NCBI GenBank assembly: GCA_964106915.2
Contig: OZ066914.1
Length of the DNA stretch: 64,000 bases
DNA from: Podarcis gaigeae
Taxonomy: Eukaryota
Reading direction: 5' to 3' (one strand)
This document shows positions 9,923 through 63,101 of this stretch, one piece after another. The notes beneath the pieces are model-generated. The model saw nothing but the letters and a program-made list of their open reading frames with translations. It did no database searches and was not told the origin of the DNA. The translations under genes were made by a program, and so were the position numbers. Position 1 is the stretch's first letter; every line of letters starts with the position of its first letter.

Positions 9923-11179
9923 TAGCAATTTTTTGGATAGAAGTAGAGATTGGAAATGGTTAATTCAGAAGAAAAGTTCCTAAAATAACTATGTCTGAAA
10001 AGGCGTTTTGTTTGCTCTCTTAAAGACCGCTCTTGGAGAAAGCAGGCGATGCAGTCCCGTGCCTGCTAGAGGCACAACAACACACTGCCTCAAGCTTCTT
10101 TACATCCCTTCCAGCCGCACTTGAGGTGCAAAGCTCTGGCAGTCATCATGGTTTCTTGCAGGCATAAGGATGCATTTGGACTTTTGAAACTGCCCGATCA
10201 AATTCTTGCTGCCCCTAGGATGCTACTATAGGTCCTGCAATACTGTTGTCTGCCTACTCCTTGCTATTCAAACCTAGATTAGTAGCTATAAGCTGCTAGC
10301 CTAGAACAGTTTCCCTAGGCCTCTTCCAGAACTCTGCAGGTTCACAAAGTGTCTGTAACAGCTAAGGGCTGAGCAGCAAAGGGTTAAGTGATGCTTATGG
10401 GTAAGCAGCTGAGGGTGATATGTTAGTCATGCCCAGAGGAGACCCAGTGATTTCAATAGCTGCGCTCTGAATATGATCTAGTTGGATATCACTCTGAGTG
10501 TTTAGGGCAGGGTTGAAAAAAAATTCTTTCAGCCAGAAGGCCACATCAATAGCAGGCATGGGGCCCCCCCTCAAATTTCAGTAGCACCCTATACAACACC
10601 AATATTCAGCACCCCCTGCCTCCCACCTTTCATTCTACATCGTACTTGCAGCGCCCCCTGTGGCACATCCAAGGCTCCCTAAATCTGCCTCTGGCTACAT
10701 CCTCTCATAGGCATCTCAGTGATGGGCAGGGCCAGATATGACTCTTAGCTTTCAACACTAGGCTACGTTTAAGTCACACAAAAATCAGAGGTGCCTGCAC
10801 ACCAGGGATGGGTGAATCTTTCAGTGTTGCTTTCTCTTAGTTCCCAGTCCGCCCCCCCCCCCCAATCTTAAGCCCAGCTCTCCTCATTTCCACATCAGTT
10901 TGCGATATGTATTAAAAGGAACTCCTCATGAACATTCACCAGCATTTTAATGCAAATTTCTCATCACATACAATTTTTTGTATGCAATTTTGTCTAATAC
11001 ACACTCTTTTTTTTGCAAAGCAATAGCATAAATATTTTGCGTGCTATTTTCAATGATATATGTGATTTAACACATACTTTACCCTAGTATATGCATTTTT
11101 CTACACACTACTTGGCTAGAGAACTGCATTGCAAGATTCAGAGATGTGCAAATGTTGAAGGATGTCTGTGTTTTGGTTC

Positions 11180-11770
11180 ACTTAGTGTCTTATCCTCAGT
11201 ATGAGATTTACTACAATCATCTGCATATATCAGGGTTGCTGTTTTACGGTTCCCAATTGAAGAGGGAAAGTGATCAGGGTGGTTTAGCTCTGTTACAATG
11301 TTGTTAATATAAAGACTGAAAAGGAGGGGAGTTAGCAGACAACTTGGTCTGACATCTTTGTTCTGATACCCTTTGTCATTCTTCCATCTGTGCTGATCCT
11401 TATCCTCATAGTAGTATTAGTATGTAACTCCTGTATTAGGAGTAGCAGCCTTTTATCAATGTTAGTCCTTGCCAGTTTACCCCACAGTAATTTCCTATTA
11501 ATTGTTTCAAATGCTGAGGAAAAGTCAATAAAAGTGGCAAAAAACTGTCTGGGTGAACCACTGGTGTATTTATGCATTAGACAGTGTAATACAAAGATTT
11601 GATCAACTGTACTATGGCCCTTCCCAAACCCAGCTTGTTCCTTGTACAATATATTATTTTCTTTCACCCAGCTTGTTAATTTCAGGAGAAGGCAGAAGCT
11701 GTAAATCTCAGAACTTATATCCAATAGGCTAACAGGCTGATAATTCTGGGGGCTGGCATGAGATTTATTA
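11180..11770 (-). mobile_element. Decayed LINE reverse-transcriptase fragment (RTE/RTE-X-like)
   Basis: NYQPVSLL, EQAGF, FIDFSSAFETINR, then after a frameshift CLLTPLLFSLYINN...LIYADD. Confidence 0.85.
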
Positions 11771-12385
11771 CACACCCTTCACACCCAGAATGTTCTAGGG
11801 TGGGTTACAGCAATAAAAATGAATCATTAAAAACATGTTTAAAACAAATTGCAATCACAACTGGAAATCACAATTAGGCTGGTTCACTTTGAAATATAAA
11901 CAGAGTTGAATTTCTCCTCTATTGCTACTACACACACACACATCTGTCCATTCAGAAACAGCCATTATCACAGTTCAATGACATACTCCAAGCAGGAAGA
12001 GGCACCTGAGAAGGATGCTTGAGGAAGATGGAGGCCCTCTTGGGCCTTGGGAGTGACATGGCTTGAGGAGAGTTCCAGGGGCCAGATGGAGTGGTTCAGA
12101 GGGCCACATTCAGCCCCAGAACCTAAGGTTCCACACCATCCTGGTAGGGTAAACTAAGAAGATCTTCACATCTGAATTCTAAGGTCAACCAGCAATTTTG
12201 GTCACATTAAATCATGCCAGCATCTCCATGAACTTTGAACAGTGCCACACTTAAATTAGACATGTTTAATTTGCCACCTTCATGATAATGGTCCCTCACC
12301 TGGGCCTGCTCTGAGTATGATTTAGTTGACAACAGCCCTCTGCGATCATGTTTTCAAGAACATCATTGTAGAGAAAATCAATTAC

Positions 12386-28737: not shown

Positions 28738-29030
28738 AGGGTTGCCATCTGTCTGGAATTTCCTGGACATTTCCAGAAATGTCCAGGTGGAAATCAGAAA
28801 AATGTACAGGGAAATCTGGACGCATGTCAACCCATGTCGGCAGTGTCGTTTTGGGCAGTTTTCCTTTAAAATAGCTCAAAAACTTCAACACCCCCCCCCA
28901 TTTTTTTTTTTGCAAAAAAAATCTCCATAACTTTGGGCAAAGCTTTTAAAAGCTCACCACTCCGCCCAACCCCCCAATGCTCAACAAATTTTCTGTCCAG
29001 ATTCTCACTGTTTGAAATATGTCAACCCTA
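28738..29030. mobile_element. hAT-type MITE, TAGGGTTGCCA-terminus family (related copies at about 31204-31415 and 38026-38250)
   Basis: agggttgccat...atgtcaacccta termini. The internal tgtccaggtggaaatc and cactgtttgaaatatg motifs are shared, with some variation, by the three copies. Confidence 0.7.
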
Positions 29031-29222
29031 ACTTAGAATCAATGAATTGCAGAGCTGGAAGGGACCCTCAGGGTCATCTAGTCCAGCCCCCTGCAAAACA
29101 GGAATCTTTTGTCCAACCCATAATCCTGAGATTAAGAGTCTCTTTCTCTACTGACTGAGCTATGTTGAATTTAGGGGACTGAACAACCTTAAGGCCCAAT
29201 CTTACACGTTTACCTGGGAATA

Positions 29223-30183
29223 CCGTATTTTTCGTCCCATAGGATGCTCCGTCCCATAGGACGCACCTAGTTTTTTTTGGGGGGGAAATAAAGGAAAATT
29301 TTTTTCCCTTTATTTCCCCCCTCAAAAGCAGGTCGGGGAAACCGAACCAGGTCGAGGAACGGCGCTGCGCCTCCCTGAGCTTGTGGGGCTGGCCGATGTC
29401 TGCCTCAGGCGCAGGCTGCTATCCGCAGCGTGGGGAGCCCTGCGGGGATGTCTATCCGGCGCGCGGGGCGCTCTGCTTCAGGGCGCCCCGCCCACCGGGC
29501 GGCAGGCTGCTATCCGCAGCGTGGGGAGCCCTGCGGGGAACCCCTGCAGGGCTCCCCACGCTGCGGATGTCTGCCCGGCGTGCGGGGCGCTCTGCTTCAG
29601 GGCGCTCCGCCCGCTGGGCGGCAGGCTGCTATCTGCGGCGTGGGGAGCCCTGCGGGGAACCCCTGCAGGGCTCCCCACGCTGCGGATGTCTGCCCGGCGC
29701 GCGGGGCGCTCTGCTTCAGGGCGCTCCGCCTGCCGGCGGCAGGCTGCTATCTGCAGCGTGGGGAGCCCTGTGGGGAACCCCTGCAGGGCTCCCCACGCTG
29801 CGGATGTCTGTCCGGCAGGGCGCTCCACCCGCCGGGCGGCAGGCTGCTATCCGCAGCGTGGGGAGCCCTGCGGGGAACCCCTGCAGGGCTCCCCACGCTG
29901 CGGATGCGCTCCCGAAGCGCCGGGGGCTCTGCTTTCAGGGCGCCCGACGCTCCAGGAAGCAGGCTGCTATCCGCAGCCTAGACATCCTTGCCGGACCTCC
30001 TGCAGGGCTGCCCAGGCTGCAGATGTCTTCCTGAAGCCTGGAGAGCGAGAGGGGTCGGTGTGCACCCACCCCTCTCGCTCTCCAAGCTTCAGCGAAAGCC
30101 TGCATTCACCCCATAGGACGCACCCAGATTTCCCCTTCATTTTTGGAGGGGAAAAAGTGCGTCTTATGGGGCGAAAAATATGG
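29223..30183. mobile_element. Non-autonomous Tc1/mariner (pogo/Tc2-like) element carrying a GC-rich minisatellite
   Basis: TA TSDs at 29221-22 and 30184-85. TIRs ccgtatttttcgtcccataggatgc and gcgtcttatggggcgaaaaatatgg. No transposase. Confidence 0.85.
29411..30030. repeat. GC/CpG-rich minisatellite, about 6 units of 91-120 bp, most with an internal 23-bp inverted repeat
   Basis: Units begin gcaggctgctat at 29411, 29502, 29621, 29739, 29839 and 29959. atccgcagcgtggggagccctgc pairs with gcagggctccccacgctgcggat. Confidence 0.92.
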
Positions 30184-41536: not shown

Positions 41537-44363
41537 TATTTGCAATACAGAAGAGAGACCTGTGCAACATTCTGTGAACACTATTTTGTTTGTGCATGTC
41601 AGACAGGGAGAAGAGAATACAAATGTCTACAGTCCCCATTTCTGACTTCTCTGCTTTCATCCAAAGCTTTCTCTGAACAGAGTCTTCACATATAAAAGTT
41701 GTATGTGCACAGGCTATTTCCAATTAGACCTCATGCATTCACAGCTTGCGGATACCCAGGCCCAGCTCTCCATTAGCTAGTGTGAGGGGGCTGCCTCAGG
41801 CGGCAATGCTGGAGGACAGAGATATGTGTGCTATGCATATGGATGTAAAGAGGCAGTGTTTTTTGTCCAATCCTATGTTTATTGTAACCAGTGCCAGTGG
41901 TGTATCATGGGGGTGGCGGTGGGGCTGTTGAGATCAGGAAAGTCTTTGTCGAGCACCTGCAGTTCAGAAGGGATGGGTTCTGTCTAACCTCAATGAGGAG
42001 GGAGTGCCACAAGTTTGGGCCCGCAATACAAGATGCATTACTTTTGGTAGTTACAAGCTGTGCATCTGAACCATGGGGGAGCACTAACAAAGCCCCCCTT
42101 TGGTGGTTGAGAAGGGATCACAAATAGGGACAGGGCTATTGCACTCAGGTCCAGCTTGTGAGCTTCTTGAGGCATCTAGCTGGCCACTGTGAGAAGAGGA
42201 TGCTGGACTTGGGCTGATCCAGCAGGGTCACTCTCCTTGGTTTGTCTCCTTCCAAGGGCAGGGAATTCTGGTGCATCTGAGTACTGGGAATGATTGACTG
42301 ACAGAAGCCCTGCTCTGGCATTCATCTGGGCAATAGAGAAGGCATAGAGAAGCCTGTTCAGCGCTACAGCAGCTCCCCAAGGATATCTGTTTCTCAGTTT
42401 TGATTACTGAATCCTTCAGTAATGCTAATAGTATTTCAGCCTTCCATTTCCAGAACCCTGGTGCTAAATTGATTTATGATTAGTGGCTCTTTAGCTGAAG
42501 GGCAGGTATATGCTAGGGCCTGATGAAGCAGACTAGCGAATGTATTATGATGCATTAGTCTGTCTGATTGTGGAGCTGCACTTAGGGAGGTATTCCATAG
42601 GTATTCAGCTGTTTGGATGAATGCATTCTAATTAACAAAACAAACATGGACCAAAACTGTTTTCTTTCTGATATTGAAAAAACTTTATTTTTAACCTGAC
42701 TGTCACACTTTTGCTTCCGCCCAGGCAGTTTTGCCTCTTCCACATAATTTCTTCTCATTTATTCTCTTTCTTTACTGTTCTACATTTTTGTAAACATGCA
42801 GAAGAAAGTTACTCTTTTTTAAAGTGGTTTTCATACTATCTCCTGAGTAACACTTTGGGGTCCTCTGGAGCTGATCAGGGAGTTGTCAGTGACAAAAGCC
42901 ACAATGATGGCCAGCCTTCCTTCTATGGCAGCTATCCCAATGTTGTTATTGATTTTCCCCTGCAGAGCTAACCCTCCAAAAGGGGTCATCAACAAGGTGC
43001 CTGTGAGCACAATGGTGCCCTTGATGTCTTCCCTTGGTGCCCACGAGGCATTTGAGCACACACACCCGGCAAATTTGCAACCAGACTAGGTTTAAAGTTT
43101 TACAATTATCTAATAAATTTCAAGACAACCTGGGGCCGGGTTACTTGAGGTAGTGTCTCCTTCCAAACTGACTTGCCTGGTCACCAAGATTTGCTAATAG
43201 GGTCCTTTGGGTTGTGCCACAGCCTGCAGGGGACCATCTTACAGTGACCATAGGGAGGGCCTTTTCCACAGTGGCACCCCTCTGCATGATGACATTTGTG
43301 TGAGTGAAGTGAATGCCCAAATATGACTTTTGTCTTTAAGATATGTCACATATGTAAGGAAATAACAATATTGCTTGGAGACGTTCAGTAACAACTTTGC
43401 CATAAGCATTCTATTTTAACAAATCTTCAGGCTGCGATGCCCAAATGGTGCTACCAAACGCATTGATTTTAAGTGAAGCTAAATTAAGGTCATCATAATG
43501 ACATATATTATTTGGATTGATTTACCCAGCTGAACTAAGTAACACACAAGCAGAACTGGTATGCATTATGACATGCAACCTTTTGATTATTATCTCCCAG
43601 CTGGAAGCCAAGAATTTCTAAGCCTTGGAGGAGCATGCCTAGTGATGCTTTTGAAAATGATGCCATTTCATAAAAAAGGATGGTTGACAGCGTTGTTAGC
43701 AGGGGTCTTGTTACTGGATAGGCCTTGAGATAATGGGAAAATCTATTTCTTTTTAAAAGACATCTCCATGACTGAGAATGATCATTAGCGAAAGATATTG
43801 CACCATGGACATTTTACATGTGCTCCCATTCTTGGTATAAAGGGATTGTCACAGAAATATTAAGGTCAAGAGCACAAGAAATAAAAAGCAGCAATAAAAG
43901 GTGAAATCCAGGCCATCACCAAAGATCTCTCACTACCTATTTAATATGGCCAGGGCATTATAACATGCAATTCTTCAAGAATTATGGGCATGGATATGTG
44001 TGAGCTGATATAGTTTATTTATTTATCACACTTTCAACTCACCCTTCCTCTGAGATCAGGGTGACAAACATAAACGTGTTATATCCCCTTTTATCTTTGC
44101 AATAATTCTGTGACGTTGGTTAGGCTGAGAAAGTGTGACAGGCCCAGTGAGTTAGGCTGAGAGACAGTAACCGGCCCAAGGTCACCCAGTTAACTTAATG
44201 GACAAACAAGGTTTATTCCCTCATCCTCCATCTCACACCTGTAGTCTTATTTCAGCTATCTCAAAGCAGATATAAAATATATCCAACTTTTAACTGTCAG
44301 AAAACATGATGTATGCACAAAGCAGGCGATCACGTAAATAGATGCTAGTCATAGTGAGCTTAC

Positions 44364-44789
44364 CTCATCAGAGCCAGATCCAAATATCAGCAGGTCAAAA
44401 GGGATTGCAGCAACCATGTCAATTAGGAACCAGCCTTTGAAGTAGTGGATTGCTATTCTTGCTGGGTCACTTACCACTTCTTCATTCTGGTTCACATATG
44501 TTGTTCGGAAGTTGATGACAATGTCAATGATAAACATGATATCCACAATTAAGTCTACCATGCTTAGTGGGTTGCATGAATAGCCACACACCAGCCTCTT
44601 CTGTTCTTCGCTGTCGTTGAGGAGGAAGGCTGCAGAGTATGGGGTGAAAATGGCCGTGTAGATCACCAGCAGTAAAATCAGCCAGTCCCAGACTGCTTTG
44701 AAAGGACTGTAGTGCAATATAGTAAACTTGTTGATGCGAGGCGTTTGGAGTTTATATTCTGGCAGAACATCTGCTCCCAAGGATAGAAC
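44364..44789 (-). CDS. KCNH7: KCNH7 (ERG3/Kv11.3) coding exon, S1-S3 (probably the orthologue of human exon 7)
   Basis: Translates [42 protein letters not shown]...[12 protein letters not shown]. Acceptor ctccctag|GTT, donor GAG|gtaagc, 426 bp, phase 0/0. TPRINKFT and [15 protein letters not shown] are ERG3-type rather than ERG1. Confidence 0.96.
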
Positions 44790-55289: not shown

Positions 55290-58272
55290 AAATGCCCAGC
55301 AGCCACACACTGGATGAACTACTGAAAGCAACAACAACTATTTATTTCATGTATGTCTGTGGAAAATTTCTCAGAAAACCCACTTCTGTCTATTGCAGGA
55401 GGCATGGGGAGAGACTTGCCAGCAAGGCAAAACCCCCTCCGAAAAAAAAAATCAAATTATCTCTCAAGAAAACCAAATTTTGTGTTCATAATTGATGTGA
55501 GTCATCATGCCATCACACTACTGAAGGTGTCTCTTAGTTAGCATGGAGCAGACCGTCCTCTCTGCATGTATGTATGGATCAGCCCTCGCAAAGCAATCAC
55601 CAGATAGAAATTCCATACAATCAATTATCATTAGGATGCATTTCAATGGAGAATGAGAGTCTTTAGGGAATGAGACATCAGGTATGATCATGCCTATGCG
55701 AATGAAACCAAAATTTCATTATTCACTTCTGTCCTGCTGCTCCACCGATGTGCCCACAGCGTGAATAAAAGAACAATACACTATAGAGATAGAAGCACAA
55801 TTACTGAAAACCATCTAAAAACAGTAAGAGTCTACCTATGAGAAAACCATCAGCAGATGTTACAATTGGTAGCATTTAAGCATTGGAAACATTGTCCTCA
55901 ATATTCGTTTATTTTTGGCTTTTGTATGCTGCCTCTTAACATTATGTTCTTTTACTTGCAATAAATAGTAACGTTCCTCCTGGTTTCTCCCCTAGAGTCA
56001 TGCTTTAAGAAAACAACGGAAAACATAAATTATCGGGAATTCAAATTATGCTATTGCACATACAGGAACTCTATAAAGTAGGGGCACTATAGGTGGGCTG
56101 TTTAGTTGTGCAAAATTTGGTTGCTATCCTGCACTTCCTAGTGTAATTATCTAGTGTCAGTCTGATAAGGAAACTGACTGGAAAATCACAGTTGAAAGTG
56201 AGGGATAACAACCACTATCTTGCAAGGTTATGTAACCTCTGTGTCAGCATATCAGGATAAATGCTCAATAAGTAGGCAATGTTGAGCAACATCGGTGCAT
56301 GTTTTGTGCAAACTTAATGGCATCAATGCTCAATAAACAGTGAGCCTGGAAGCTCCTTAAGTCTGACCCACTTTAGGCTAAGCAATGCCTAGTAGACGTG
56401 AAATCCAAACAAAAATGGTCCTCTGGAGATCCAATTGGATCTCCAGGATTCTATTCATACACAGCAATATTTTCATGATAAAAACTGCTTTCCTCTTAAA
56501 TGTGCTTCTTTTGAGTTTAACATCATATGCATGCTAATCTTTCCTAAATCGATTCTTTTAAACTCGTTCATTAACTACCTGTCTTCCAGAACTTCTAATG
56601 GAAACCTGTTGGTTAGATGTTTTCAATTAGCACAAGTTCATTCATGAATCAGTGCTTCAGTTAAAGCAGCCAAATGCTTGCCTAATAGAATTTATTTTCC
56701 TGATTTGGCCTAATTGACCCTGAAAACTGAAATGGTGCTTCTGAAGACAAGTAGGAAGGTTTTACACACTGATAAAAGAGAGGGGGGAAATGCTCTATTA
56801 TTGTAATATTCCCTTCTTCCGATGCCCTCAGACAGGTACGTAGAGATAACTTGTACCTGTGCTCAAGATGACATGTGAACAAGTCCAATGGGAGTGGGGG
56901 AATATGGGCCTACCGAGGATCTCTTACACACAACTGACAAAAACATGGGTTAGGCTCCTGGATTACTTACACAGAATATGAAGGCAAAGGAGAGCTTTTG
57001 ACAACATGTGTGTGAGAGCATGTGTGTACAGGCACAGGCACTTACATAGCTACACATGCTAAGGTGATGATCCTTAGAATGCGGAGTGTCCCTGTTTTCA
57101 CCTAGAAAATGTCTGGTGGCCTGCGTGATGCAACAGGTGCAGTATAAAACCATCTTGCTTTCTAAAGACCACAGGACAGACTTGGATGGCAGGCTGATTT
57201 AACTCCAGCTGCATAAACAACGGAGTGTCTTTTACAGGATTAGGCCTCCTGCCTTAACGCTGCTTCCCATAAGGAAGAAAGCACTATTAAAAAGGCCACT
57301 GATCCCCTTTCAAGAGAAAGATGCCACGTTTGTAATTTTTGAAAACATCCAGGCTTTAAAGCCCATTCTCCAATCTCTTGTCCCTGGCTTAGGCTTTCAT
57401 CTCTGCACACCTGCACACCATTGTGATTTGTTAGCATTTTGTACCCACTTAATGATTTCACAGGTGCGAGACATGGAAGAATCAGCCCATTGATCTCTGC
57501 TGCTGGGCCCATCTCCGCAAAGCGTACATCCCCCCCCCCACATTTCCTCCTCCCTCCCTTCCAACACAGCTGTTTTTCCACATCTTTGTTGCATAAATAC
57601 ACTTTGAAAATGATAGTGTAATTAAGCACACTTAAATCATTACCATAATTAGGACCTGTGTTGCAATTATTAAAAAAAAAGTTTTGTAACTATGTAACCC
57701 CAATAAAAGCTGAAATCTTAACTGGAGGAAGGTATTAAAAATTAACGTAGAAGAGCAACATTTTCCACGTGGTGTGTGTATGTTCCTTTCTCATCAGGAA
57801 CAGGAAGAGAGAAAGAGAGAGACAGGTGACGAGAGAGACACCGTAACTGAACAAATCACAGGGACAACAAAGTAATGAAGTGGCATTAAGCTTACATTAC
57901 TAGGATGATTATAGGCATAATTGGAAAATACAGATTAAACCTTAAGCTTTCTCAGTAATTAAGGAGCAATTCCTTAGGGGCTGGTCACACAAACCAATTT
58001 TGTAGTTCCACAGTGATCCTCTATGACTATGTTATACTACAAGAGTTGTGGGAATGGCTTGGATACAAAAACGGCTCCAGAAATGGAAACAGTCCCCTGA
58101 AGTTCTCAGGAAGTTCTCTGTCTCAGGACCCAGTTACACAGCTGAACATAAAATGTTTTAAATGTGTTGTAAAGTGCAATATATAAATGTGACACTAGAT
58201 GGCGATAGTGAGCTATGAAAAATTCAGTGTGTTTTTCAAAACGTATATATATATATATATATAAACGTATAT

Positions 58273-58791
58273 ATGCAGGTTTTGGTGTCCTCGGGTGTCT
58301 TCCCGTGTAAAAGTTGGGGTGTCTAGGCGACGTTTCGACGAGGTCTCACTCGTCATCTTCAGGCTGGTGCTTTCGGCTTCTTGTTACTGGAACAGAGCGG
58401 GATCTCAATGTTTGAGTTCCTATAAATACTGTAGAGGGGGTGTGGTGTCTAGCCTCCAATGTTCTGGGCAGAGAGGAAGTTCCCAGGCTAGTGTGCCTTT
58501 TCTTCTTTTGTTCCTTAATTACTTGAGAGATACCTTGAGTGATTTCTTGAGTGATATCCTGAGTACCACTTAGGTGGGTCATTAGGTGTGGATTAGTTGC
58601 TAAAGTCTTTGTGTCTTGACCTCTTGAACTTTGTGAAGAGTTTTCCTGAGAAGATGGCTGTATTGCACTTAGTTGTGCTTTGGCTTGGCTTCGTGTATAG
58701 GGGCGAGCTGTTGTTTTGTGGCTTGTGTCAGCCAGATCTGTGTAGGGATTGCAGGGGGGTGCAGCATCCGGAGGTGCCACCATGGATTGGC
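58273..58791 (-). repeat. Left (inverted) pLTR arm, 519 bp
   Basis: Mirror coordinates sum to 118552 at both ends and internally. Translations in three frames are identical to those of the right arm. Confidence 0.95.
58327..58364 (-). ncRNA. Second copy of the minimal hammerhead core, in KCNH7-sense orientation
   Basis: Exact reverse complement of 60188-60225. Predicted cleavage between 58329 and 58328. Confidence 0.85.
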
Positions 58792-60206
58792 CACACGGGA
58801 AGGAAAAACTGGATAGCTTCCTCACACATCTCAACAACTTACACCCCAAAATACAATTCAGTATGGAAATAGAAGCCAACAACCAACTTCCCTTCCTTGA
58901 CGTCCTAATCTACAAAAAACCTGATGGCTCCCTAGGACACACTATCTACCGGAAAAAAACACACACCAACCGCTACTTACATGCACAATCACACCACCAC
59001 CCTGCACAAATAAACTCCGTAGCCAAGACTCTCATCTCCAGAACCAAACGCCTGGCTGACAAAGACCACTTGACAACTGAGTTACAGAATCTCTCAAATG
59101 TGTTAATTGCCAATGGATACCAGCAAAACAGGATTACGAAGCTAATCCAAAAGGAAACACCCCCCAAAAACCAAGACACAGAAGAAAACAATGGCATGGC
59201 CCTCCTTCCTTATATCAAGGGCACTACCTATAAAATTAGCAAAATCCTCCATAAACACAATATCAAAACAGCCTTTTGCACCAACCAAAAAATAGCCAAT
59301 ATCCTCAGAAACCCCAAGGATAAAATCCAGTTGGAAAACCAAGGGATCTATGAAATACCCTGCAAAGTCTGCCCAGCCACGTACATTGGACAAACAAACA
59401 GACGAATAAATGCACGTATCGCAGAACACAAGAATGCCGTCAAAAAAGAAGAAAAAACTTCCTCTCTTTTCCAACACATGAAAGAAACAGGACACGAAAT
59501 TAATTTTGCAGATTCCAAATTGCTCTTTAACACGGAACATCACCACAAGAGAATAATCATGGAAGCCATCGAGATAGAGAAACACCCTCACAACATGAAC
59601 AAGCGTGACGACACATCCCGCTTGCCAGACATCTGGAAATTAGCCCTCCCCACAAAAACTGACACCAGATCCAGAGGCACACAGAACGCCAACACCAATC
59701 AACCACACCAGACCCAAACCCAGACCCTCTCCACAGATGAATTACTGACACCATCCAGTAGCCAATCCATGGTGGCACCTCCGGATGCTGCACCCCCCTG
59801 CAATCCCTACACAGATCTGGCTGACACAAGCCACAAAACAACAGCTCGCCCCTATACACGAAGCCAAGCCAAAGCACAACTAAGTGCAATACAGCCATCT
59901 TCTCAGGAAAACTCTTCACAAAGTTCAAGAGGTCAAGACACAAAGACTTTAGCAACTAATCCACACCTAATGACCCACCTAAGTGGTACTCAGGATATCA
60001 CTCAAGAAATCACTCAAGGTATCTCTCAAGTAATTAAGGAACAAAAGAAGAAAAGGCACACTAGCCTGGGAACTTCCTCTCTGCCCAGAACATTGGAGGC
60101 TAGACACCACACCCCCTCTACAGTATTTATAGGAACTCAAACATTGAGATCCCGCTCTGTTCCAGTAACAAGAAGCCGAAAGCACCAGCCTGAAGATGAC
60201 GAGTGA
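58782..60206 (+). CDS. Uninterrupted 474-aa ORF: PLE RT thumb/linker, GIY-YIG endonuclease and pLTR-encoded low-complexity tail; lacks the RT catalytic YxDD
   Basis: Lies in ORF 58749..60206. The first ATG, at 58782, is in GCCACCATGG and comes from the inverted arm. No stops. Expression is not shown. Confidence 0.7.
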   Translation: MDWPHGKEKLDSFLTHLNNLHPKIQFSMEIEANNQLPFLDVLIYKKPDGSLGHTIYRKKTHTNRYLHAQSHHHPAQINSVAKTLISRTKRLADKDHLTTELQNLSNVLIANGYQQNRITKLIQKETPPKNQDTEENNGMALLPYIKGTTYKISKILHKHNIKTAFCTNQKIANILRNPKDKIQLENQGIYEIPCKVCPATYIGQTNRRINARIAEHKNAVKKEEKTSSLFQHMKETGHEINFADSKLLFNTEHHHKRIIMEAIEIEKHPHNMNKRDDTSRLPDIWKLALPTKTDTRSRGTQNANTNQPHQTQTQTLSTDELLTPSSSQSMVAPPDAAPPCNPYTDLADTSHKTTARPYTRSQAKAQLSAIQPSSQENSSQSSRGQDTKTLATNPHLMTHLSGTQDITQEITQGISQVIKEQKKKRHTSLGTSSLPRTLEARHHTPSTVFIGTQTLRSRSVPVTRSRKHQPEDDE

Positions 60207-60279
60207 GACCTCGTCGAAACGTCGCCTAGACACCCCAACTTTTACACGGGAAGACACCCGAGGACACCAAAACCTGCAT
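59761..60279 (+). repeat. Right pLTR arm, 519 bp; includes four 12-bp tandem units at 59988-60035
   Basis: Reverse complement of 58273-58791. Tandem units: actcaggatatc / actcaagaaatc / actcaaggtatc / tctcaagtaatt. Confidence 0.95.
60188..60225 (+). ncRNA. Minimal type I hammerhead ribozyme core (PLE-associated)
   Basis: gc-CUGAAGA-U-GACGAG(ugagac)CUCGUC-GAAAC-GUC-gc: conserved core, perfect 6-bp stem II, palindromic ACGU stem III. Predicted cleavage after 60223. Confidence 0.85.
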
Positions 60280-63101
60280 TCCTGTACCCGTGAAAATCTA
60301 CGAAAGCAAACGTATATATATATATATATATATATATAAATTTTCACAGCGTTTTTAAATATGTGTTTTGAGTCCACCTCTGTCTCTGTCCCCGTCTCTC
60401 TGTCTCTCTATGTGTGTGAGAGACAGAAAGAGATGGGGAGGGCAGGGAAAACGAAAATGTTATGTACTATTGTGCCCCTTTCTTCAAAGTTTGAGGGTCA
60501 GAATCTCCTTTAAAAAAAATCATTAAAAAGGGAGGGATGTCAGGTTTTTGCATTTCAGCTTTCTTTAATAAAAGGTACTTTTTTGTGCCCTAGGGAAGAC
60601 TTGTCTCTTCCTGACAATCACTGCCAAGACCCCATCTGAACTTGTCAGTGTAAAATATGTAGCAACTGGGCTGTTCTTCTGAGCTGGTTGTCAAGAAAGA
60701 TGAATAGGACAGAAGGATATAAAAAGCAAATTGATACCCACTCCCTTGCCCAAGAGTTATAGTCTGGCTTAGGACATCTGGAAATTAGGTGGTATATGAT
60801 GAAGTGCACAGTTCACAAGATTCTCTTTTCAGGCTGCTTTCCACTGCCATTAGCTATACACTATGGAATTAACCTTGTCCTCAAGATTTCAATCTACAGC
60901 ATGGAATAAGGTATAATAAGTATAGCTATATTTAAATTCCTGCTTCACCATATTGTTTAGAACACGGATTGCCAACCTATTTGGAGTCCGAATTTTGAGA
61001 GTGTTCTGTGGGTGCCAGTCACAAAATGGCTTCCATGGGGATGTGGTGTAAACCAGGGTTTTTTTCCAGGCAGAACTCACTGGAACTCAGTTCCAGCACT
61101 TCTCAGATTGCCCACCAGTGCCATTATAAGAGGAGGCGTTCATGGTGAACTCTGGCACCTCTTTTTCTAGAAAAATAGCAAAATTAGGGACAAAATTAGG
61201 CTCTCCCAAACCCAGACAACTCACTGTTTTCTATGGGATTTCAGCCGCGTCCTGCTGGCACTGATTGTGGAGATACAGCTGTTAATGGCACAATAATCCA
61301 GTTTCCCCCAATGCCAATTCCAAACCTTGGCTGCCATCCTTTATCCACTTAGCTGGCATTCATCCCCATTAAACAAAAGTGACTGACTTCTGAGTAGACA
61401 TGCTTGCCATTATGCTGCAAGTTAACTATACATTGATTCCTTCACGAGTGCCTGGCTTTAGGTCCTGCACAGCAGCTGATATGCTGAGACATCTTTGCAA
61501 AGTTTTTATGTTTTGCATTTGCCACCTGGGGAGGGGATTACGGTATTATACACCCTCCCACATTATTGCATAGTATCATTTGCAGAAAATAATATCTAGG
61601 GGTCTAGGGATGATCTGAACTCAAACAGACACACCACAGGAAAGATGCATCTTGACTACAATCTGGCTTGTCTCATCTCACGGAAATCGCTTACTGTAGA
61701 AGGGTTCCTACACATTTTGCTTTATAACTTTCCTTTCAGTAAGGCTATACTTTTATTTTTTAAGTTGAAAGCTTTGAGTCTGCAGCCGTTGTCCTAGGGG
61801 GTATCAATGAAGGCCTTCAGAGGTGTCATGGGACCCACAAACAATGTGCTGACAACCCCTGATTTAGGATTCACCAGCAGTTAGCCATTTTAGCATGCCA
61901 ACACAAGCACACACTCAATCCTTTTGGAATAGCACATAAGAACGCACGACTAAAATGCATCCACCAAAATGACAAACACAGATAACATTTACAACTTAAT
62001 AAATTCACAGAACTTAATCTTCAGACAGTGGGACAGATCACCAGTGCTGCTAATTCCTATTTGGAAAATTTGCATACTGAATAATTACCACCTGGAATAA
62101 CAAATGCTGTGTGAGGCAGACTGGATTGGACAGGTGATAAATATTTGCACATCTGGTAGTATTAAAATGGGGGGGGGGGACTGTGCTAAATCAAAAAGAT
62201 CCACTGAACACCCCACCACCTGTTCAGTTGGCCTCACATGCTTCTTTTTGTTTCTTTCCCTTGCAACATTAAAATTATGTACTGACATTCTCCTTCCATT
62301 GGTGGCTGGCACAGTAGGCTGGGTGTCATTTACAAGGCCCCACTTTATAACCACATGGCATGCTGCTGATAACTGAGAGGGCAGGTTGGTGCAGTGAAAG
62401 GAAGAGTCAGGAGTGTCAGGTTGGCTCTGCTGCTGCTCTCGCACTGTGTTGACCTTTCTGCCACCTTGCCTCTCACCCTCCCAGTTACCAGAAGTGACCA
62501 CAGCATTGGGAAGCCAAGTTAGCAATGTCCCTCCTGCTTCATCCCGCTGGCCACTGCTATATTTTTCACTGAAGTTCTTCAAATTTTACTCTGCCCTTCT
62601 CTGCCCAGGAAGATCAAAGGCAAGGCCGCAGCATCAATAAAAGGGACACCACATTTTCTTTATGTGGCAGAAGAAAATGAAGTGAACAACGAAGAGCAAA
62701 TGTGTGACACCGTCACTGCCAATAGGTGTAGCATTTAAGGCCATGGGATGCAATGTTGACACCCCATTCATGTATATGAACATAAGGAGCTGCCTTATAT
62801 CAGATCAGACAATTTGCCCATCTAGCCCCGGACTGTCTTACTCTGACCAGCAATGATTGTCCAGGGTCTTGGGCAAAGGTCTTTCCCATCACCTGTAACC
62901 TGAAGGTTCAGGATAAAGGGTCAGGGTGATGGGGAAACCTCATATGGGTTGTAACAGTCCCGTCAAAACGGGAACAACTCTAAATTTCAGGGGTTCCTCA
63001 AACTCTAAGCAGATGGAATAGATTGCCAGTTCAGAGTAGTATAGGAAGCTGTCTGATGCCAAATCATTCGCACACCTGATCTAGCTCAGAATTGTCCACA
63101 C

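Follow-up and report, generated by a model that had tools for sequence, protein, structure and literature searches.

A young, 5'-truncated Penelope-like element with a perfect inverted arm in Podarcis gaigeae and the probable origin of its TATA-plus-Kozak arrangement

The PAc element (Poseidon_Ac of Anolis carolinensis) carries its start codon in stem II of a hammerhead motif, its initiation takes place 111-118 nt into the ORF, and two RT start sites bound its tail; both target strands are cleaved and extended, a dimer is predicted, and the targets are AT-rich (all from the available part of PMC11167929). Inverted 5' copies, one-sided tails and a bias toward microsatellites are described as typical of Penelope-like elements (PLEs) in the portions available of PMC8557442 and PMC2377424, in keeping with the premise of a preliminary description of the DNA studied here that inverted pLTRs occur in these elements. 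Penelope of D. virilis and the Pen2, Pen5 and Pen6 elements of Adineta have an inverted, 5'-truncated copy of variable arm length at the 5' end, along with a one-sided tail of 30-40 nt, microhomology junctions and microsatellite bias (PMC2377424, PMC3846280, PMC8557442; available parts), and the TATA of Adineta can be read both ways (PMC3846280, likewise). Poseidon PLEs have been confirmed in reptiles in a preprint whose available text says nothing on inversions (bioRxiv 10.64898/2026.07.22.740005).

We analyzed a 64,000-nt stretch of contig OZ066914.1 (assembly GCA_964106915.2), referred to as the window, and found a 2.0-kb, 5'-truncated Penelope/Poseidon retroelement that resembles the Penelope and Adineta copies in all of the above traits. 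We are confident that the locus is a young, 5'-truncated lacertid copy of the Poseidon clade with a perfect 519-nt inverted arm, that two-ended reverse transcription and joining at 5 nt of microhomology likely produced it, and that a TATA-plus-Kozak "cassette" seen at its junction is likely a by-product yielding little or no protein. The inverted pLTR arm (58273-58791, minus strand) starts from the family's tail-less end point and is the exact reverse complement, over all 519 nt, of the right, sense arm (59761-60279, plus strand), which holds the ORF end and the pLTR; a spacer of 969 nt lies between the arms. The PLE tail of ~30 nt (60280-60311, plus strand) occurs at the right end only and is flanked by a (TA)13 microsatellite (60313-60338). 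The left copy of a candidate 10-nt target-site duplication (58263-58272, plus strand) lies within the (TA)n tract, and the same word was found at 60308-60317 and 58239-58248; the boundaries of the duplication are ambiguous because of the microsatellite. This combination of inverted arm, junction microhomology, ~30-nt tail and (TA)n flanks is the known PLE layout. Two differences set this copy apart from those of Penelope and Adineta: the arm is joined straight to the truncated ORF, a direct pLTR being absent upstream, and an antisense ATG happens to lie in frame across the junction. Since the arms are perfect and CpG observed/expected was 0.42-0.48 in the element as compared to 0.16-0.26 in the flanks, we consider the insertion to be young. 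A different, older high-copy repeat was noted at 58128-58235 and 60340-60380, and the (TA)n tract of the PLE adjoins it or sits inside it. In each of the four runs surveyed the older repeat showed high depth along with numerous loose ends, and a stretch in it near 58194-58207 resembles the CTCF core motif. Among the contigs of the four runs, the flank contigs stopped at the (TA)n tracts.

The ORF of the family is single, with RT followed by a C-terminal GIY-YIG domain as in EN+ PLEs, and the pLTR expected of that group is represented by the inverted arm and the one-sided tail. A protein of Podarcis muralis (P0001, RT plus endonuclease, 735 aa) was 97% identical to the first 291 residues that follow Met-Asp in the reading frame at this locus; Pfam found RVT_1 in it, plus GIY-YIG below cut-off. 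By inspection and folding we identified a hammerhead-like motif at 60190-60230 (plus strand) with a CUGAAGA core, a 6-bp stem II, GAAA and GUC, which holds the ORF stop and the native ATG at 60196. This ATG opens the family N-terminus, and the pLTR end and the tail end lie 84 nt and about 113-116 nt downstream of it, respectively. The family frame ends at a stop in the motif and overlaps the start codon of the next unit. The core and stem II were present and stem I was weak in folds, and we regard the motif as a putative ribozyme; an Rfam search gave no hammerhead match, only 7 weak matches over flanking simple repeats. The element shares with PAc the order of RT and GIY-YIG in one ORF, the start codon inside a hammerhead or hammerhead-like motif, a tail end about 111-118 nt past the ATG and AT-rich targets. 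Unlike PAc, the copy here is truncated past YVDD and has an inverted arm, and the lacertid family has a low-complexity extension of ~180 codons with the frame open into the hammerhead-like motif, the two elements having been compared by description and not by alignment. Membership in Poseidon is suggested by the layout, in which the ATG within the putative ribozyme and the tail offset agree with PAc, rather than by a tree. The copy is best described as a likely dead, otherwise ordinary non-autonomous PLE with a textbook inverted end.

We then considered the coding capacity of the copy, for which the preliminary description had claimed an ATG at 58782 in frame with 474 stop-free codons, a complete-looking GIY-YIG domain and no RT active site. 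All three claims held. The frame (58782-60206, plus strand; stop codon at 60204-60206) takes Met-Asp from the arm and enters the native Poseidon ORF at a Trp five residues after YVDD, and it continues through an RT remnant with the thumb, a linker, the GIY-YIG domain and a low-complexity tail. The fingers, the palm and the N-terminus are gone, so that both the RT active site and the N-terminal domains of an autonomous PLE are missing from the frame; because YVDD is lost, the copy is unable to reverse-transcribe itself. The GIY-YIG endonuclease domain (59343-59645, plus strand) was recognized by its residues, Pfam, a structural model and Foldseek. Residues G188, Y190, Y201, G203, R212, H216, E261 and N273 are all present, and each of the core and Cys/His residues is common to 142-154 of 155 relatives (for C194, C197, H232 and H238, all present in this copy, 154, 149, 149 and 145, respectively). 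The domain alone passed the Pfam cut-off (23.3 vs 22.6 bits), while within the whole protein it fell just under. The AlphaFold model of residues 1-293 had a mean pLDDT of 91 and an alpha/beta fold, and its best Foldseek match was the catalytic domain of I-TevI (TM 0.75 by target, E 0.038), with no match at E 0.001. When the family profile was searched against PDB sequences, only 3 RT chains were found, over columns absent from this copy. Judged by its intact catalytic residues, the protein, if made, could be an active nuclease.

A protein from an unrelated contig (P0053) matched the last 368 residues of the frame with 2 differences and ended at the same stop. The long open tail is therefore a family trait, and the junction adds only the two residues Met-Asp. 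We noted that the frame is kept open for ~180 low-complexity codons past the nuclease and through the pLTR (59661-60206), as it is in P0053. A native in-frame ATG in strong context (58863-58865, plus strand) opens 447 codons independently of the junction and is present in any copy that reaches that far. At position 58861 the window differed from all contig depth in 4 of 4 runs, which gives a private T27S, whereas 144 of 155 relatives have Thr there; this is one conservative change (n=1) and weak evidence. D150Y was also considered as a private lesion and was dropped, since no contig difference was found at 59229; P0053 and P0001 do not have Tyr at this residue, and 129 of 155 relatives have D/E. 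Neither the exact 474-aa protein nor the 447-aa protein had a match in a collection of about 15 billion protein sequences. Pieces of the PLE ORF were seen in two snake database proteins named ACOT12 and P2Y purinoceptor 1 (P0033 and P0055), which are likely annotation chimeras.

At the inversion junction, native-RT contigs join at 58787, so the letters TTGGC (58787-58791, plus strand) fit both the arm end and the native RT sequence and constitute a 5-nt microhomology. The end points, the break point, this microhomology, the one-sided tail and an asymmetry of 519 vs 1488 nt were observed directly. In the origin that we favor, the protein would cut an AT-rich target on both strands. The right end would be primed at the start site of the tail end and copied for about 1.5 kb, the left end would be primed at a second start site ~30 nt upstream and copied for 519 nt, and the two cDNAs would anneal at TTGGC to form the junction. 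We have moderate confidence that there were two priming events, one per target end. The 5' inversion of L1 by twin priming likewise involves two priming events on two target ends and a join at short microhomology, as we propose here. In L1, however, a distinct segment lying further 5' is inverted, whereas the parts at this locus overlap fully and form terminal inverted repeats because both start at the 3' region of the RNA. A tentative alternative, which we consider clearly less probable, is the Arkhipova model of fold-back self-priming, with an antisense strand as template (proposed in PMC3846280, as far as its available text goes), which would leave the copy equally inert. It accounts for near-symmetric junctions of the family (58313 to 60240 and 58390 to 60167) as well as two-ended priming does, but the junction of this copy is strongly asymmetric and has microhomology, not a palindrome. 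Moreover, the starting point of the arm is the tail-less end point and that of the other end is the tail end, in agreement with the two RT start sites described in the available part of PMC11167929. Fold-back thus suits the near-symmetric junctions better than it suits this one. In several other copies (joints 58313-60240, 58390-60167, 58444-60123 and 58445-60127), pLTRs of 40-170 nt form near-symmetric head-to-head pairs that enclose no ORF; these are possibly fold-back products or MITE-like derivatives.

We compared positions 57700-60900 with the contigs of 4 of 24 runs, which carry three species labels. Single contigs in the element body had 344-2040 times the depth of a single-copy flank contig, a rough ratio and not a copy count. 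Copies often stopped at 60279 and ran on into (AT)n, as seen in 25, 6, 7 and 9 contigs of the four runs. The main table listed 15 of 89 joints; our junction set consisted of 16 arm-to-body joints among those listed (14 + 2), all from run X1, with one internal deletion and five other rows that were not arm-to-body left out. Arm lengths in the 16 listed junctions ranged from 41 to 486 nt. Inserted letters occurred in 4 of the 14 main-table joints. Among the listed junctions without inserted letters, 9 of 10 had microhomology of at least 2 nt as compared to 16% expected (P about 5e-7), these rows being marked "between: not known". None of the contig pieces listed bridged the junction of the copy itself. 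This, together with the high copy number of the family, raises the question of whether the junction is an assembly artefact, a mis-join of repeat copies. We assign that reading a negligible probability: the microhomology is clean and of the same type as at other junctions, the tail is one-sided and accompanied by the candidate target duplication, and both flanks run on into host-like sequence.

The same junctions bear on the suggestion that inverted copies are enriched for in-frame fusion to the Kozak ATG, which failed among the joints listed, as 0 of the 16 reached this ATG. The TATA was included in 9 of the 16. Two kept the whole GIY-YIG domain, neither with an open ATG, and one had a weak ATG in frame but lacked the start of the domain. 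Calculated for the antisense strand, the chance that a junction at random has an open in-frame antisense ATG is 14% for arms of 30-519 nt and 30% for arms of 30-1488 nt, and for one in strong context it is about 9-10%. At a rate of 14-30% and in a family of this size, many in-frame fusions would be expected by chance.

As the preliminary description had stated, the octamer TATAAATA is present at 58421-58428 on the plus strand. It is the reverse complement of the sense octamer TATTTATA (60124-60131, plus strand), a candidate sense TATA box 72 nt upstream of the native start codon. Read in antisense, the octamer is closer to the TATA consensus than it is when read in sense, and a bidirectional TATA in the pLTR is possible. 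The perfect Kozak 10-mer GCCACCATGG (58776-58785, plus strand), the reverse complement of coding positions 59767-59776 (Ser-Met-Val-Ala codons), was exact as described, but the arm runs 6 nt beyond it rather than ending there. Since only the two arms carry this 10-mer in 64 kb, with one occurrence each, the exact word is rare. In random 519-nt stretches of the window (n=5000), RnnATGG occurred in 69%, TATAWAWR in 12% and TATAAATA in 2.8%. We conclude that the promoter-like and start-codon-like motifs are real and that their presence is likely coincidental. In its native setting the Kozak ATG opens an antisense ORF of 23 codons. Transcription and translation from the L1 antisense promoter and ORF0 are directly evidenced. 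The locus resembles ORF0 in having a strong-context antisense start codon near the promoter region of a retroelement, and differs in that the antisense ORF here is 23 codons long and known from sequence alone. A bacterial promoter scan returned 0 promoters, its models not being applicable to a vertebrate host.

The cassette proposed from these motifs would have the inverted pLTR act as an antisense promoter, so that the locus makes an RT-less GIY-YIG nickase of 474 aa (or 447 aa). The TATA, the rare Kozak word (2 in 64 kb), the open frame and the intact catalytic residues speak for it, as do the I-TevI match and the pLDDT of the model. Its proponents could further point to cleavage of DNA by the isolated Penelope EN domain (as cited in the available part of PMC11167929) and to the two-way TATA of a rotifer pLTR (PMC3846280, available text). 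Several features count against it. Four plus-strand ATGs precede the Kozak ATG in the arm (58273, 58408, 58459 and 58654), all out of frame, and only 58654 is in strong context (A-3, G+4). The two upstream ATGs that the preliminary description had named, near 58459 and 58654, were both found: the first opens a weak-context uORF of 10 codons (58459-58491, plus strand), and the second a strong-context, out-of-frame uORF of 72 codons (58654-58872, plus strand; stop at 58870-72) that runs past and overlaps the Kozak ATG. Scanning ribosomes would meet the strong ATG at 58654 first and would be diverted into the overlapping uORF, although leaky scanning past it is possible. Overlapping uORFs are described as not allowing reinitiation at the overlapped start (available portion of PMC6547434). 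We also folded a plus-strand RNA of 58450-60310 and obtained a predicted duplex of 342 bp (about -713 kcal/mol), in which the whole leader as far as the junction (342 of 342 nt, with the Kozak word among them) is paired to the right arm. RNAs with the leader in a long duplex are poorly translated and attract editing or silencing. AATAAA occurs inside the frame at 59009 and 59405; an RNA cleaved at either site would lose the right arm, but its frame would be cut before or inside the nuclease. The first downstream signal, at 60522/60567, lies beyond the hammerhead-like motif.

The promoter premise fared no better. Antisense promoter activity of Penelope pLTRs had been taken as reported, but in the available parts of the two sources PMC3846280 calls its direct demonstration future work and PMC2377424 does not contain the word "antisense". 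A literature search that had most subscription papers outside its reach found no report of such activity, and in the same literature on twin priming, Podarcis and truncated domesticated endonucleases in squamates no such cassette was reported. The absence of the exact protein from about 15 billion sequences, the lack of recurrence among the 16 listed junctions and, weakly, T27S also count against expression. A working cassette is thus unsupported: the fusion adds two residues to a frame that the family has anyway, with a native strong-context ATG at 58863, the uORF overlaps the start, the leader is predicted to be paired, none of the 16 other junctions listed reaches the Kozak ATG and the promoter premise found no backing in the literature covered. 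We regard expression of the nickase as very unlikely, and silence of the copy, with little or no protein made, as the likely state. A wider version, in which the lacertid Poseidon pLTR has a true two-way TATA and an antisense Kozak start (the 23-codon frame being ORF0-like) and inversions repeatedly create RT-less, nuclease-competent GIY-YIG proteins, this copy included, seems to us just as improbable; if true, the copy would act from within KCNH7, either by nicking DNA or by regulating the family in a trans-dominant manner.

The preliminary description had placed the ORF antisense to a neuronal channel gene, and we identified the host gene on the opposite strand as KCNH7, which encodes a potassium channel. 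Its minus-strand exons run from 44789 down to 1909, with 97% identity to the Podarcis protein over the nearest exon, and the nearest matched coding segment (44352-44789, minus strand) covers aa 381-526 of P0160. KCNH7 aa 1-380 were not found in the 64-kb window; in tblastn comparisons of three KCNH7 proteins, the matches there began no earlier than residues of about 381-396, and a motif search found no N-terminal KCNH exons. Because residues 1-380 are absent from the window, the element very likely sits in the intron on the 5' side of the S1-S3 exon, the nearest one matched, at a distance of 13.5 kb from it and with its ORF antisense to the gene. The KCNH7 pre-mRNA would carry a 519-bp hairpin and a second hammerhead-like copy in sense orientation (58312-58372, minus strand), and acceptor-like sites were noted at 58464 and 58946 on the minus strand. 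Elsewhere in the KCNH7 introns, a CpG-dense tandem array of 100-119-nt units with long plus-strand open frames was noted at 29400-30010 (GC content 64% in 29001-30000); it is possibly a non-autonomous DNA transposon, its flanks looking related by inversion. Minus-strand frames at 11141-11778 look like what we take to be fragments of an old LINE reverse transcriptase.

This setting prompts the reading that the octamer is a two-way promoter with a non-coding product, either a hairpin or an antisense RNA, as input to small-RNA silencing of the family, and that the hairpin or motif in the KCNH7 pre-mRNA might be edited or cleaved. The perfect arms with their predicted duplex, the minus-strand hammerhead-like copy and the mostly antisense small RNAs of rotifer Penelope (PMC3846280, available part) are consistent with it. 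On the other hand, stem I was weak in folds and Rfam gave no hammerhead match, the PAc ribozyme cleaved only with protein (available part of PMC11167929), and the element lies 13.5 kb from the nearest matched exon. We consider this reading unlikely, and favor a copy whose inverted end arose by two-ended priming and whose motifs came together as a by-product.

If the cassette were expressed after all, it would show the antisense pLTR promoter activity that PMC3846280 calls undemonstrated in its available text, and one way in which RT-less transposon nucleases can arise in a vertebrate. The value of the locus is modest and mainly mechanistic, as its two ends coincide with what appear to be the two RT start sites that in vitro work identified for the anole element. 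The formation of PLE inverted repeats is listed as an open question in the available part of PMC8557442. Since the ends match the RT start sites and the junctions are rich in microhomology, the family, which is young and numbers hundreds to thousands of copies, could be used to test how PLE inverted repeats form.
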